Source of the DNA: Breznakia blatticola
GTDB taxonomy: Bacteria; Bacillota_I; Bacilli_A; Erysipelotrichales; Erysipelotrichaceae
Length of the DNA stretch: 30,757 nt
NCBI RefSeq assembly: GCF_004365815.1
Contig: NZ_SODD01000029.1
Location: 1 to 30,757, forward strand
Direction: 5' to 3'
Positions 6,924-13,662 of this stretch are shown here, piece by piece. Each line of letters begins with the position of its first letter. Position 1 is the stretch's first letter. The notes beneath the pieces are model-generated. The model was not told where the DNA came from. It ran no database searches and was given only the letters and a program-made list of their open reading frames with translations. The position numbers and the translations under genes were made by a program.

Positions 6924-7154
6924 CTAGAAGATTCTAATCGCAATAACTAACATAAAGAAAATAATACCCATTACAAGCGTAATTCTGGCTATTACCTTCT
7001 CAGGTCCACGTTCTTTCACATTTGCAAATAGGTTCAAACCATCTCCACCTGTAAAAGCACCACTAATTCCATCAGACTTTCCACTTTGTAATAACGAAAG
7101 GACGATAATAGCTCCAGAAACTATCATTAATAATACATCTAACATTTTATACAT
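6924..7154 (-). CDS. secG: Preprotein translocase subunit SecG
   Basis: The 76-aa two-TM ORF has the LLQSGKSDGISGAFTGG signature. SD AGGAGG is present. Confidence 0.9.
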   Translation of the reverse strand: MYKMLDVLLMIVSGAIIVLSLLQSGKSDGISGAFTGGDGLNLFANVKERGPEKVIARITLVMGIIFFMLVIAIRIF

Positions 7155-7204: not shown

Positions 7205-7300
7205 TAGGCAAGTTGTGAAACGAAATTCTAATATTTTAAAGTAATTCTACCTATCAACAAAAATAATAAATATTTACCCACCATTTCGCAAACTACTTTT

Positions 7301-7857
7301 TTATCCTTCAGGATTGTATAATATATCTTCGTATCCTTGTTCCACATACCATTCCAAGTAATCAAAGAAACCTTCATGACTCAATCCATATTCTCTATAA
7401 TATACGTTTACCCATGCCTATGCTTCTTTCATGCTTTCAATTACTTCTTCATCGCAATCAGTTTCTTCTGTTTCATAATAGTACATGCAATATGTAATAT
7501 CAATATCTTTACTATTCCTAACTTTTGCTTTTTTTCACGAGGTTTATCGAGACTATCAAATATTACAATTCTCTTATCGTCTTTGTACTCAAAACCAATT
7601 GTAATTGTTCTCTCTCCTACCCCTCGTGATAGTCTCCAATAATGTACCCCTAAATCGTTCTTTGAATCGAGAGTAACACTTATTGAAGTTGATCGAGTAT
7701 CAATTGAGTCAACTATGACTCCAGCCTTATCCATTTTCTCTTGGTACTTTTCTCCACTGAATGTTTGATTGCATCCCATCAGCATGCATATCATAACCAA
7801 TACACTCAAGATTCTTTTTTTCTCATATCCTGTTATCCCTCTTCTTACAGCACTCAC
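7301..7857 (-). pseudogene. Decayed copy of the array lipoprotein (at least 3 lesions)
   Basis: Poly(A) after the canonical ATG (7824-7826) is A7 (7815-7821), against A8 in the copy at 8972-8979. The mid-gene tract is A7 (7529-7535), one short of in-frame. An in-frame TAG sits at 7418-7420, where the other copies have GAA. Confidence 0.8.
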
Positions 7858-7876
7858 TTAAGTATATATCCACTTT

Positions 7877-8404
7877 TTATCCTTCAGGATTGTATAATAT
7901 ATCTTCATATCCTTGTTCTACATACCATTCCAAGTAATCAAAGAAACCTTCATGACTCAATCCATATTCTCTATAATATTGGTTTACCCTTGCTTCAGCT
8001 TCCTTCATACTTTCAATTACTTCTTCATCACAATCGGTTTCTTCTGTTTCATAATCATATGTACAATATGTAATATCAATATCTTTACTATTTCTAACTT
8101 TTGCATTTTTTTCACGAGGTTTATCAAGACTATCAAATATTACAATTCTCTTATCGTCTTTGTACTCAAAACCAATCGTAATTGTTCTTTCTCCTACCCC
8201 TTGTGATAATCGATGATATGCTACACCTAAATCAATCTTTGGATCGAGAGTAACACTTATTGAAGTTGATCGAGTATTAATCGAGTCAATTACGACTCCT
8301 GCCTTTTCCATTTTTTCTTGATACTTTTCTCCACTAAATGTTTGATTGCATCCCATCAGCATGCACATTACAACCAATATACTTACGATTCTTTTGTTAC
8401 TCAT
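7877..8404 (-). CDS. Lipoprotein, array paralogue (putative orphan immunity protein)
   Basis: The 175-aa ORF has a signal peptide with lipobox LMGC-NQT and SD GAGGGA. It is homologous to 9036-9563. The mid-gene A tract is interrupted (AAAAAAAT), which keeps the frame. Confidence 0.85.
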   Translation of the reverse strand: MSNKRIVSILVVMCMLMGCNQTFSGEKYQEKMEKAGVVIDSINTRSTSISVTLDPKIDLGVAYHRLSQGVGERTITIGFEYKDDKRIVIFDSLDKPREKNAKVRNSKDIDITYCTYDYETEETDCDEEVIESMKEAEARVNQYYREYGLSHEGFFDYLEWYVEQGYEDILYNPEG

Positions 8405-8455
8405 ACCCTGTTATCCCTCTTCTTACAACATTCACTTGAATGTTTATCCACTTTT

Positions 8456-8984
8456 TTATCCTTCAGGATTGTATTCAATATCTTCGTATCCTTGTTCTAC
8501 ATACCATTCCAAGTAATCAAAGAAACCTTCATGACTCAATCCATATTCTCTATAATATTGGTTTACCCTTGCTTCAGCTTCCTTCATGCTTTCAATTACT
8601 TCTTCATCACAATCAGTTTCTTCTGTTTCATAATAGTACATGCAATATGTCATATTTAAATCTTTGCTATTATAATACTTTGCTTTTTTTTTCATGAGGC
8701 TTATCCAGACTATCAAGTATTACAATTCTTTTATCGTCTTTATACTCAAAACCAATCGTAACTGTTCTCTCTCCTAACCCTCGAGATAATCGATGATATG
8801 CTACACCCAAACCGTTCTTTGAATCGAGTGTAATACTTATGGAAGTTGATCGCGTGTTAATCGCATCAATTACAACTCCAGCTTTATCCATTTTCTCTTG
8901 GTACTTTTCTCCACTGAATGTTTGATTACATCCCATCAGCATACACATTGCAATCAATACACTCAAGATTCTTTTTTTTCTCAT
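8456..8984 (-). pseudogene. Array lipoprotein split by a +1 frameshift in an A9 tract
   Basis: ORFs 8670-8984 (N-terminal half) and 8456-8716 (C-terminal half) overlap at the T9 run at 8684-8692. Removing one A gives a continuous ~175-aa paralogue (..HEKKAKYYNSKDLNMTYC..). Confidence 0.8.
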
Positions 8985-9035
8985 ATCCTGTTATCCCTCT
9001 TCTTACAACATTCACTTAAGTGTATATCCACTTTT

Positions 9036-9563
9036 TTATCCTTCAGGATTGTATTCTATATCTTCGTATCCTTGTTCCACATACCATTCTAAATAATCAA
9101 AGAAACCTTCATGACTCAATCCATATTCTCTATAATATTCGTTTACCCTTGCTTCTGTTTCCTTCATGCTTTTAATTACATCTTCATCACAATCAGTTTC
9201 TTCTGTTTCATAATCATATGTACAATATGTAATATCTATTTTCTTATTATTATATAATTCTGCTTCTTTTTTGCGATAATTATCAATACTATCAAATATC
9301 ACAATATTCTTATCTCTTTCATATATATAATCAATCGAGAATATTTTCTTCCCTATACCTCGCGATAATCGATTATATGATACTCCTAAATCGTTCTTTG
9401 GATCAATCACAATATTTATCGTGGTCGCTCTAGTATTAATTGAAGTAATTTCAATTCCAGCTTTATCCATTTTCTCTTGGTACTTTTCTCCACTAAATGT
9501 TTGATTGCATCCCATCAACATACATATCATAACCAATATACTTAAGATTCTTTTATTTCTCAT
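9036..9563 (-). CDS. Lipoprotein immediately downstream of the LXG gene (putative cognate immunity protein)
   Basis: The 175-aa ORF has lipobox LMGC-NQT. Its start lies 4 nt after the LXG stop, with SD AGGGGAG inside the last LXG codons. Its central ~90 aa diverge from the other three copies while both ends are conserved. Confidence 0.85.
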   Translation of the reverse strand: MRNKRILSILVMICMLMGCNQTFSGEKYQEKMDKAGIEITSINTRATTINIVIDPKNDLGVSYNRLSRGIGKKIFSIDYIYERDKNIVIFDSIDNYRKKEAELYNNKKIDITYCTYDYETEETDCDEDVIKSMKETEARVNEYYREYGLSHEGFFDYLEWYVEQGYEDIEYNPEG

Positions 9564-9567
9564 AGCA

Positions 9568-11301
9568 TTACTCCCCTACTTTCTTAATCATAAAATTTTC
9601 AACTCGTATTACAATCTCTTCAATTTTGTTCACATATTCTAAATCGTTATACAAATCTGCTACATCTACTTTAGGAAGTTTAATATATAATGTCCCTTTC
9701 TCATCTTCAGTATACTCACATCCAGACAAGGAATCGCACAATTTCTTTACTTCACCTTTTTTTTCCATTTTACCCACATTAATTCCATATGTTGCTATTG
9801 CATCTAACTTCTGATTATAATTATCTACTGCTATTCCTGTAGCTTCGCTAAGAATAAACTGTGTCTTATCTTTCACTGTTATACACTTCAGATCAAATTC
9901 ATCTACCAACCCTGAATTAAGTAATACATCTTCATCTGTAAATCTTGAAGTACTTGTATACTTTCCGTTTTTATACTTTTCTATTTGCTTTGAATCAATT
10001 CCATACACATTCATAATATCTGACAATGCAATTGCACCATCTACTATAGTTAGTACTCCTATCTGATCCACAAATCCGACACCATAACTCATTAACCCCA
10101 ATAGGGTATCTACTCGATCCATCATTCGTTTATTTTCTACATAATCGATTATCATTTCTTTTTCTCCTAATCGACCATGTGATTTTACTTCAAATTCCAC
10201 AGCATTGTTATTACCTGAATCTGCAAACGATACTCCAGTAAGTAATCCTTTTCCATCTATCTCGTCATATGAAAATAGCGCTTCTGTTCCTAATATACCT
10301 CTTAGATCAAATACATAATCTAATTGTATGCTCATTTCCAACATTGCTTCTACTTTTACAAATCGTTTCGCATATTTTTCCCATTCGAAATCTTTGTTGT
10401 TTACATTTAGGATTCCTTCTTCTCGTAGTTTATGTTCACTCATAAAAAGTACTAATTGAAATAGTGGTGAAGGTGAATACCCATTCTTCACCTGCGATTT
10501 TTCCGTGTCATATATTTGTGTTATGTCATATGGCACATTATATCCATACGTCATAATTAATGGCATTTCACTTTCATCAATGCGAATGATAATATCCGTG
10601 ATATTTTCGAATTCTTCACGACTAACTTCACCAATATCTTTCTTAAGTATTCTTTCGATATACTTCTTTCCTTCGTCAGTCAATTTACCATCTGCAGTAA
10701 TGTATTTAGATAAATATGCGTCTTTCGACTTTTCTACCCATGATAAATCAACATCTGTAAACTGCAGTTTTTTAGTATCAAAACTTACATCCTTTACTAC
10801 TTCGATTCCGCGCTTTAACTGTTGAATGTATATCTCTGTGTGATCATAATACTTATTTGCTTGTATGTCATAATCATAAAGATCATCTATCTTTCTTCTC
10901 AACACTCTTAAATTATATTGATATAGTTCTTCAATCCCTGCAGTAAACTGCATTGGCATACTTTCCAATTTTCTTAACATTCCGTTTATACTCATAATTA
11001 TCGTCTCAATTTCTTCCTCATTAAGATATTGATCTCCGAGCATACATGTGTATAGATTTTCAGTACTTCGATTTGATCGAATCAGTTCCTCACACAACCA
11101 AATATGAATCTGATATAAATTATAATACACACTTCGTATATAACGTTTATGAGCTGCAAATGCTTGTCCTTGTAATTCTTGATTCACACAAAAAGCATCA
11201 ATCTCTTTCAATACAGATTGACTAGTTTCTTTCATTTCTCTTAATGCACTATTTAAATCACTGAATTGGTTTTGTATCTCTCTAAGATGGAAGGACTTCA
11301 T
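9568..11301 (-). CDS. LXG-domain polymorphic toxin candidate (T7SSb substrate) with an unassigned C-terminal domain
   Basis: The helical N-terminal ~200 aa carry L43-Q-G45 in the context QELQGQAFAAHKRYI. SD GAGGAGG is present. It is preceded by two small overlapping helical ORFs and followed by lipoprotein genes. No signal peptide is visible. Confidence 0.75.
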   Translation of the reverse strand: MKSFHLREIQNQFSDLNSALREMKETSQSVLKEIDAFCVNQELQGQAFAAHKRYIRSVYYNLYQIHIWLCEELIRSNRSTENLYTCMLGDQYLNEEEIETIIMSINGMLRKLESMPMQFTAGIEELYQYNLRVLRRKIDDLYDYDIQANKYYDHTEIYIQQLKRGIEVVKDVSFDTKKLQFTDVDLSWVEKSKDAYLSKYITADGKLTDEGKKYIERILKKDIGEVSREEFENITDIIIRIDESEMPLIMTYGYNVPYDITQIYDTEKSQVKNGYSPSPLFQLVLFMSEHKLREEGILNVNNKDFEWEKYAKRFVKVEAMLEMSIQLDYVFDLRGILGTEALFSYDEIDGKGLLTGVSFADSGNNNAVEFEVKSHGRLGEKEMIIDYVENKRMMDRVDTLLGLMSYGVGFVDQIGVLTIVDGAIALSDIMNVYGIDSKQIEKYKNGKYTSTSRFTDEDVLLNSGLVDEFDLKCITVKDKTQFILSEATGIAVDNYNQKLDAIATYGINVGKMEKKGEVKKLCDSLSGCEYTEDEKGTLYIKLPKVDVADLYNDLEYVNKIEEIVIRVENFMIKKVGE

Positions 11302-11530
11302 TTTCTGTTTCCTCCTCTTTACTTATTTCTCTTTCTATCTCTTCTAACTCTTGACTTACTTTATTCATTGCCCTTTTATGAATATCCAAGCTTTCTTTTG
11401 ACATATTCCCACTGTCAGTCAAAGGAAATATCTCATAAAGATTTGCAAACAATTCATTGCTTTCCTTTAATAATTCTCTTAGTTCTTCAAGTTTCCCTTT
11501 TTGTATATACAACACATCTTTACTATTCAT
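11282..11530 (-). CDS. Small alpha-helical LXG-associated protein (Lap2/DUF3958-like)
   Basis: The 82-aa ORF is rich in charged residues and predicted helical. It shares an ATGA overlap with the upstream ORF and overlaps the LXG start by 20 nt, suggesting translational coupling. Confidence 0.55.
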   Translation of the reverse strand: MNSKDVLYIQKGKLEELRELLKESNELFANLYEIFPLTDSGNMSKESLDIHKRAMNKVSQELEEIEREISKEEETENEVLPS

Positions 11531-11790
11531 TTTCCAATTTCATCTCCAATCTTCGTATCAAGATTTTTAAAGCTTTTGGAAATAGTTTCTACTTTACCCA
11601 TATCTCTTTTAAAGTAATTATGAATACTTTTGTGTATAGTAAAAGTTTCATTTGCTTGAAATGAAATTCTTTCTTGTGTAGATAGAGTAGTAGCAGATGA
11701 ATATTTTACTTGATTGATAGTTGTTTTTACTTTAGCTTGTAGTTTATTAAGAAAACTACTTATATACTTATGATTAACTCGAACTGACAT
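11527..11790 (-). CDS. Small alpha-helical LXG-associated protein (Lap1/DUF3130-like)
   Basis: The 87-aa ORF is the first gene of the operon, with SD GAGGGGA. It contains YFKRD (YxxxD) and FKNLD (FxxxD) near the C-terminus. Confidence 0.55.
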   Translation of the reverse strand: MSVRVNHKYISSFLNKLQAKVKTTINQVKYSSATTLSTQERISFQANETFTIHKSIHNYFKRDMGKVETISKSFKNLDTKIGDEIGK

Positions 11791-11820
11791 TCTTTTCCCC
11801 TCATATCATTTAATTATATA

Positions 11821-11848
11821 ATTATAACAGTTGAGATTTTTTCGTCAA
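11821..11848 (-). promoter_or_regulatory. Strong sigma-A-type promoter of the LXG operon
   Basis: On the minus strand, TTGACG (11843-11848) is followed by a 16-nt spacer and the extended -10 TGtTATAAT (-10 at 11821-11826), about 25 nt upstream of the first SD. Confidence 0.6.
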
Positions 11849-12235
11849 TGTTCGTTTACTTTGCTCAATCATTTCATAACGACTAAAGCGGTAATTTTTA
11901 CAATTGTGAAACTGATGGTTTTTTATCATTTTCTTGATTACGACTCAACGGTAAGAAGAAAAAAGACACAATTGGCATTGCTAAATATAGCACCATAATA
12001 ACATCGTGTGCACCGTTTGCCTGCACGATTTAATAACATGTCAAACGAGTAAAACTTTATGATTCAATACATATTCCTTATAATCACACCTACAACTACA
12101 TCATTATCCTAATCATTTGTCTCTTTTATAACAGCACATACAATGTAACACACTACTATCTATATTATTAAGTTTTACATTTCTCCATATTCTCCAATCA
12201 TATTTATAGTATTTCTTTTTTAGAATATCAGCTAA

Positions 12236-12266
12236 ATATAAAGAAAACGACCACCGAAGTGATCGT
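12236..12266 (-). terminator. Intrinsic terminator of eno
   Basis: On the minus strand, ACGATCAC-TTCG-GTGGTCGT forms 8 pairs with one G-U, followed by TTTTCTTTAT. It lies 20 nt after the eno stop. Confidence 0.65.

Positions 12267-12285: not shown

Positions 12286-13662
<1,377 letters not shown>

Follow-up and report, generated by a model that had tools for sequence, protein, structure and literature searches.

Why are two of the four neighbouring lipoprotein genes of Breznakia blatticola out of frame at the same poly(A) tract, and do these breaks represent a switch or decay? This question was addressed for positions 1-30,757 of contig NZ_SODD01000029.1, in the following referred to as the window, i.e., the complete stretch of 30,757 nucleotides analysed, to which all coordinates refer unless stated otherwise. 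The genome assembly is a draft comprising 98 contigs and 2.46 Mb at 34% GC. On the minus strand, the genes constitute a tandem array of four head-to-tail units of ~578 bp, which follows an LXG-like toxin gene. The unit product is a 175-aa protein featuring a lipoprotein signal peptide (MRKKRILSVL..MLMGC), and the intact gene measures 528 nt. The array belongs to the following module:

12286-13599: eno, flanking the module
7223-12236, minus strand: accessory island of 5.0 kb with a promoter, two small helical-protein genes, the LXG-like gene and four lipoprotein copies
11821-11848, minus strand: promoter-like site TTGACG-16-TGnTATAAT ahead of the first small ORF, matching 11 of 12 consensus positions and the best of the region
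11527-11790, minus strand: 87-aa small helical protein from the ORF list, by its position a putative Lap/WXG-like partner
11282-11530, minus strand: 82-aa small helical protein from the ORF list, likewise a putative partner by position
9568-11301, minus strand: 577-aa LXG-like protein, the presumed toxin of a type VII secretion system (T7SS)
6924-7154: secG, flanking the module on the other side

Family searches returned no match for the 87-aa protein and no significant match for the 82-aa protein. For the 577-aa protein, the Pfam LXG model aligned to residues 3-82 with an E-value of 0.0022 and 18.4 bits, which is below the cut-off of 26.5 bits; its paralogue on contig C1 of the same genome scored 16.5 bits against the same cut-off. 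T7SSb core genes are encoded in the genome, namely WXG100 (62.6 bits, C69) and YukC/EssB (261 bits, C84). Between the promoter-like site and secG, no terminator-like site was found on the minus strand, the first one being located at 6902-6881, past secG; therefore, the lipoprotein copies are probably co-transcribed with the toxin gene.

Within the array, two copies are intact and two are broken:

9036-9563, minus strand: copy 1, intact, 175 aa, adjoining the toxin gene, with a 'SIDY' core and A6G at the tract site
8456-8984, minus strand: copy 2, 529 nt, with a single +1 lesion and every other part intact
8972-8979, minus strand: 5' A8 tract of copy 2, in frame (ATG AGA AAA AAA AGA = MRKKR)
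8684-8692, minus strand: A9 tract of copy 2, for which A8 is the in-frame state, at codons ~97-100 in a variable, K/E-rich stretch
7877-8404, minus strand: copy 3, intact, 175 aa
8105-8112, minus strand: interrupted tract A7T of copy 3 (GAA AAA AAT), in frame
7301-7857, minus strand: copy 4, a pseudogene with three lesions, 526 nt (528 minus 2) from the displaced ATG at 7824-7826 to the stop
7815-7821, minus strand: 5' A7 tract of copy 4, -1 relative to the A8 of copy 2 and of the C1 paralogue, with the ATG out of frame with the gene body
7529-7535, minus strand: A7 tract of copy 4, -1, at the site homologous to the A9 of copy 2
7418-7420, minus strand: in-frame TAG in the C-terminal segment of copy 4, at a codon that is GAA or GAG in the other copies

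The sequence and a four-copy alignment agree with the original prediction in all coordinates and tract lengths (A9, A7, A7T and the 5' A8/A7). Indels between copies are confined to the A tracts, and the segments flanking the tracts in the broken copies translate to the complete family sequence. The A9 tract breaks copy 2 into ORFs of 104 aa (8670-8984) and 86 aa (8456-8716), and the intact C1 paralogue carries a post-ATG A8 identical to that of copy 2. One-base changes in both directions at one homopolymer bear out slipped-strand mispairing, the mechanism that had been put forward. Equally, the copy at 7301-7857 is dead whatever its tract does, as predicted, in view of its second slip and the in-frame TAG at 7418-7420.

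Two further observations concern the sequence at the runs. The -1 slip in copy 4 creates, in the incoming frame, GAA AAA AAG at 7527-7540 (minus strand), which includes the classical A AAA AAG -1 ribosomal-frameshift heptamer; a -1 shift at this site would reach the correct downstream frame, which is moot given the two other lesions. Copy 2 alone features CAT for CGT at 8693-8696 (minus strand), providing a new ATG that opens the downstream frame right at the run (MKKKAKYYNSKD..). A split gene using this ATG was considered and is unlikely, as the C-terminal piece is devoid of a signal peptide and has no evident ribosome-binding site.

Frame breaks at homopolymers may also originate from assembly or sequencing, in which case the true tracts would be A8 and both genes would be intact except for the TAG in copy 4. 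Homopolymers are the classic place for length miscalls, the tandem repeat region is difficult to assemble, and the array is known from a single assembly. However, frame breaks are not commoner at long runs elsewhere in the 2.46-Mb draft: when every A/T run of at least 5 nt was scanned for one-base changes fusing two 60-codon frames, candidates amounted to 2.0, 2.4, 2.1 and 1.7% of A5, A6, A7 and A8 runs, respectively, i.e., a flat distribution. Moreover, 12.9 kb around the C1 paralogue were compared to a 96.4%-identical Breznakia genome and revealed eight indels, none of which breaks an ORF. An artefact would require three miscalls within 1.5 kb, in opposite directions, and copy 4 additionally bears a substitution-type lesion, the TAG. 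Homopolymer sequencing error, named in the original prediction as the alternative, is thus made unlikely by the genome-wide run scan and the 12.9-kb comparison, and we infer that the array is free of assembly error at the tracts. Chimeric mis-assembly as source of the tracts was ruled out, A9-GCA and A7-GCA being found in no other copy.

Provided that the tracts are real, their distribution among relatives indicates how they arose. In the five intact relatives, the tract site reads A7T (copy 3), A6G (copy 1) and A7G (C1 paralogue), and there is no run in the two copies of the other Breznakia genome (..ACTAAAGAA.. and ..GCTAAAGAA..). Accordingly, the tract is not maintained among homologues, being interrupted or absent in five out of five intact relatives, and an uninterrupted A8 as the in-frame state at the mid-gene site is specific for the two broken copies, of which one is shifted by +1 and one by -1. 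The mid-gene tract falls into alignment columns 94-110, where the protein is rich in K/E and least conserved. Both tracts result from the AAA codons with which lysine is written in this genome of 34% GC. Three of the five in-frame-A8 tracts of the family are shifted, as compared to at most three of approximately 55 A8 tracts in long ORFs genome-wide, an excess with a Fisher p-value of ~0.005 in a post hoc comparison. Since indels are expected to concentrate at the longest run, two lesions at one site need no selection.

The original prediction went further and proposed that the A9 copy may be a phase-variable on/off gene. Copy 2 would then be a contingency gene in which reversible A8/A9 slippage during replication toggles one orphan immunity lipoprotein in some cells. 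Surface lipoproteins are typical phase-variable products, and the bidirectional changes at one tract demonstrate that the tract does slip. Furthermore, copy 2 harbours a single lesion and thus is otherwise intact, which does not apply to copy 4 with its second slip and TAG. A/T runs of contingency loci usually reach 9-10 nt or more for high-frequency slippage; the A9 of copy 2 is at this threshold, and the A7 of copy 4 as well as the in-frame A8 are below it. A run of 9 nt represents the length at which slippage becomes appreciable in many bacteria, which places copy 2 at the lower edge of slippage-prone lengths (PMC1088944), and homopolymer slips were proposed as regulators in streptococcal T7SS loci (PMC9900821).

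Against a switch, none of the intact relatives has conserved the tract, which is accounted for by AAA codon use in a variable stretch and lies mid-gene. The sister broken copy, copy 4, is irreversibly dead, and there is no evident benefit of silencing one among several co-transcribed presumed immunity genes. The genomic background likewise argues against this reading, since MutS and MutL are intact and no other long run in the genome splits a gene. The genome contains 23 A/T runs of at least 9 nt, among which the A9 of copy 2 is the sole one splitting a recognisable gene; the four other frame-break candidates at runs of at least 8 nt resemble ordinary gene boundaries. Only three runs of at least 9 nt lie deep within long ORFs (C11:51843, C41:18018 and C47:13825), and a T14 run at C30:9702-9715 is not located in any long ORF. 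The ratio of run counts per added base is 0.35-0.38 at shorter lengths and decreases to 0.12 and 0.10 for runs of 8 and 9 nt, respectively, corresponding to an ~8- to 10-fold drop at 8 and 9 nt versus ~2.7-fold at shorter lengths. This depletion is in line with the selection against slippery runs that Baranov et al. described (PMC1088944). With long runs sharply depleted and one of the 23 runs of at least 9 nt splitting a gene, the genome does not possess a 'phasome', and a setting favouring slippage, comprising several such loci and often weak or absent mismatch repair, was not encountered in this genome. Hence, the predicted phase-variable gene finds no support in the testable features (conservation, length, codon usage and other loci), and a contingency gene is considered slightly less probable still than a sequencing or assembly artefact.

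The age of the breaks was estimated from pairwise comparisons between copies, for which each piece was translated in its own frame. The dN/dS values were 0.07-0.35 for pairs involving copy 2 and 0.09-0.35 for pairs involving copy 4, as compared to 0.06-0.41 for pairs of intact copies. Copy-unique changes, given as synonymous/non-synonymous, amounted to 7/6 in copy 2 and 4/4 in copy 4, and to 4/2, 5/3, 7/7, 8/14 and 5/8 in the intact copies. Because dN/dS of the broken copies matches that of the intact pairs and their unique changes do not exhibit a non-synonymous excess, the breaks are recent. The substitution pattern thus indicates that the broken copies were under purifying selection until recently. 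Long-standing pseudogenes were rejected, as an excess of non-synonymous or unique changes was not observed. For copy 2, a dN/dS like that of intact copies and no sign of drift are also what a gene in the OFF state would be expected to show. Recent purifying selection therefore suits a young pseudogene and the OFF state of a switch equally, and it does not discriminate between them.

Another way in which copy 2 might remain functional is expression despite the frameshift, in which the RNA polymerase would slip, or the ribosome slide, on the A9 run and a minority of in-frame product would result, as in the case of Citrobacter rodentium tssM1. Transcriptional slippage on A9 and T9 runs was reported for several bacteria (PMC1088944), and an A11 run rescues tssM1 at ~20% (PMC4256274). 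However, for the A9 run to be rescued, one A has to be lost or two have to be gained, and in A/T runs transcription errs overwhelmingly by single insertions, deletions being rare (PMC5574713). Moreover, programmed slippage would be recognised by a conserved A/T run of at least 9 nt and an extended frame conserved beyond it. The A9 run is present in one copy only, is not conserved and gives no sign of selection for the run. Expression of this kind is regarded as the least probable of the readings considered here.

A broader version of the switch would combine slippage at the DNA or RNA level, such that A8/A9 variation in copy 2 acts stochastically and a minority of cells displays an extra orphan immunity lipoprotein against a rival's toxin variant; its chances are slim, falling between those of the contingency gene and of expression through the frameshift. 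If true, the copy 2 switch would represent bet-hedging in type VII secretion warfare. To our knowledge, bet-hedging of that kind has not been described for immunity genes.

Slippage decay, which is the preferred reading, presupposes that the copies are redundant, and their distribution bears on this point. The function of the lipoproteins is presumed from gene order: at three loci (window, C1 and L008), they accompany the LXG-like toxin and hence are presumed to be its immunity proteins. Searches of Pfam, NCBIfam and PDB sequences did not match the lipoprotein to any family, and an AlphaFold2 model of an intact copy reached a mean pLDDT of 38.9, a quality that permits neither a fold search nor a confident placement of the tract in a linker. 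Among 5.8 billion proteins, the only relatives are the C1 paralogue and two copies in 'unclassified Breznakia' assemblies; in total, the protein search returned seven database proteins, each from this genome or assigned to Breznakia. A second carrier of the array was detected neither among 60 related species genomes nor by an exact-sequence look-up, and in the 5.8 billion proteins all matches originated from this genome and one other Breznakia lineage, in which the locus is the paralogous one. Similarly, metagenome and genome collections contained no further carrier when screened for a conserved 44-nt DNA pattern or scanned with protein profiles.

The accessory character of the module became apparent from a conspecific strain without the island. 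Logan contig L014 (run SRR35247381) fuses window positions 12758-12237 to 7222-4754, and at this empty site (L014 1-536) eno and secG are separated by just 13 nt. Identity of L014 to the window is 100% on the eno side and 98.06% on the secG-rnr side. Since the conspecific strain lacks it, the 5-kb LXG module is accessory in the species. At the paralogous locus, one lipoprotein copy is present in this genome (C1) versus two in the other Breznakia genome, a difference of 577 nt. The missing island and the differing copy number at the paralogous locus together indicate that the copies are dispensable and in flux.

Several features of the related loci were observed in addition. The second, near-identical LXG module is located at G000 C1:16967-19223 (L002, L013), adjoining a gene for a PLP enzyme of Cys/Met metabolism, and its counterpart in the 96.4%-identical Breznakia genome is L008 5768-9104. 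The toxins of the window, C1 and L008 are ~96% identical except for one hypervariable patch near the C-terminus at aa ~505-540 (window 9568-9800), which includes a 2-aa indel. The lipoproteins feature two core types, namely 'KKIFSIDY.YE.DKNIVIFDSIDN', found in copy 1, C1 and Bb, and 'ERTITIGFEYKDDKRIVIFDSLDK', shared by copies 2-4 and Ba. Together, the two core types and the variable toxin patch hint at matched toxin-immunity specificities. Furthermore, the 3' third of the gene (last ~100 nt; window 8453-9040 and all copies) is almost identical in DNA sequence among all seven copies, those of the other genome included, and the middle part diverges. This pattern suggests that the copies evolve in concert or that the C-terminal part, which is acidic and helical, is under very strong constraint.

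Based on these results, the frame breaks are interpreted as real, recent slipped-strand indels in redundant copies of a presumed immunity lipoprotein, i.e., as decay and not as an evolved switch, with a probability of roughly 0.6. In the proposed course of events, AAA codons would write both the Lys-rich start of the signal peptide (MRKKR) and the Lys/Glu-rich variable stretch (..EKKA..), thereby generating A runs. Point changes may then have chanced upon an uninterrupted A8, at which the gene would be most liable to indels. Spare copies in an accessory island presumably experience weak selection, and one-base slips would not be purged under such relaxed conditions. Decay would be progressive, with copy 4 having arrived at three lesions and copy 2 at one so far. 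Back-slippage from A9 to A8 in copy 2 would be physically possible, incidental and of low rate.

The array accordingly provides an example of spare presumed immunity genes in polymorphic-toxin islands that would die first at the longest A run written by low-GC codons. For annotation, it follows that the database 'proteins' of 104 aa, 86 aa and 117/138 aa are fragments of two pseudogenes. The case also cautions against reading every homopolymer frameshift as phase variation. If tract heterogeneity were demonstrated, copy 2 would be the first immunity gene of a T7SS toxin known to be phase-variable.

Arrays of orphan immunity genes are known to follow T7SSb toxins; examples are the esaG/DUF600 arrays behind EsaD in Staphylococcus aureus and TipC, which follows the LXG toxin TelC of Streptococcus intermedius. 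The Breznakia module resembles these arrays in having small helical-protein genes before the toxin gene and several paralogous candidate immunity genes after it, in a copy number that varies between strains, and in the fragmentation of some copies. As for TelC/TipC, the partner is exposed outside the membrane, here in the form of the presumed immunity lipoprotein. In contrast to this shared organisation, the Breznakia lipoprotein has no detectable sequence relationship to either DUF600 or TipC.

Poly(A)-controlled surface lipoproteins of mycoplasma are an example of contingency loci. Like simple-sequence contingency loci (Moxon and colleagues, reviewed in PMC10710837), copy 2 is a surface lipoprotein gene whose coding region contains a mononucleotide run, and the length of this run sets the frame. 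Unlike in such loci, the Breznakia run is short and not conserved among homologues, and the genome is mismatch-repair-proficient without other loci of this type; its intact MutS and MutL also distinguish it from the classical poly(A)- and poly(G)-switching organisms.

Citrobacter rodentium tssM1 is comparable in that a secretion-system-associated gene is interrupted right after a poly(A) run (PMC4256274). The tssM1 run, which is conserved and 11 nt long, is rescued by insertion of an A and is needed for function (PMC4256274), whereas the run of copy 2 comprises 9 nt, is not conserved and would require a disfavoured deletion.

The closest parallel to the lesions themselves is found in group B streptococci, in which slip-strand frameshifts occur at homopolymers of T7SS genes, namely at a Gn run in essC and an An run in esaA (PMC9900821). 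As in the Breznakia array, one- or two-base changes in homopolymer length truncate genes of a T7SS locus, and the authors of that study raise the question of regulation (PMC9900821). The streptococcal cases concern machinery genes and are documented in many closed genomes (PMC9900821), whereas spare downstream copies in one genome are affected here. Slip-strand breaks at homopolymers in T7SS loci are thus already known, and the Breznakia array is a further instance.
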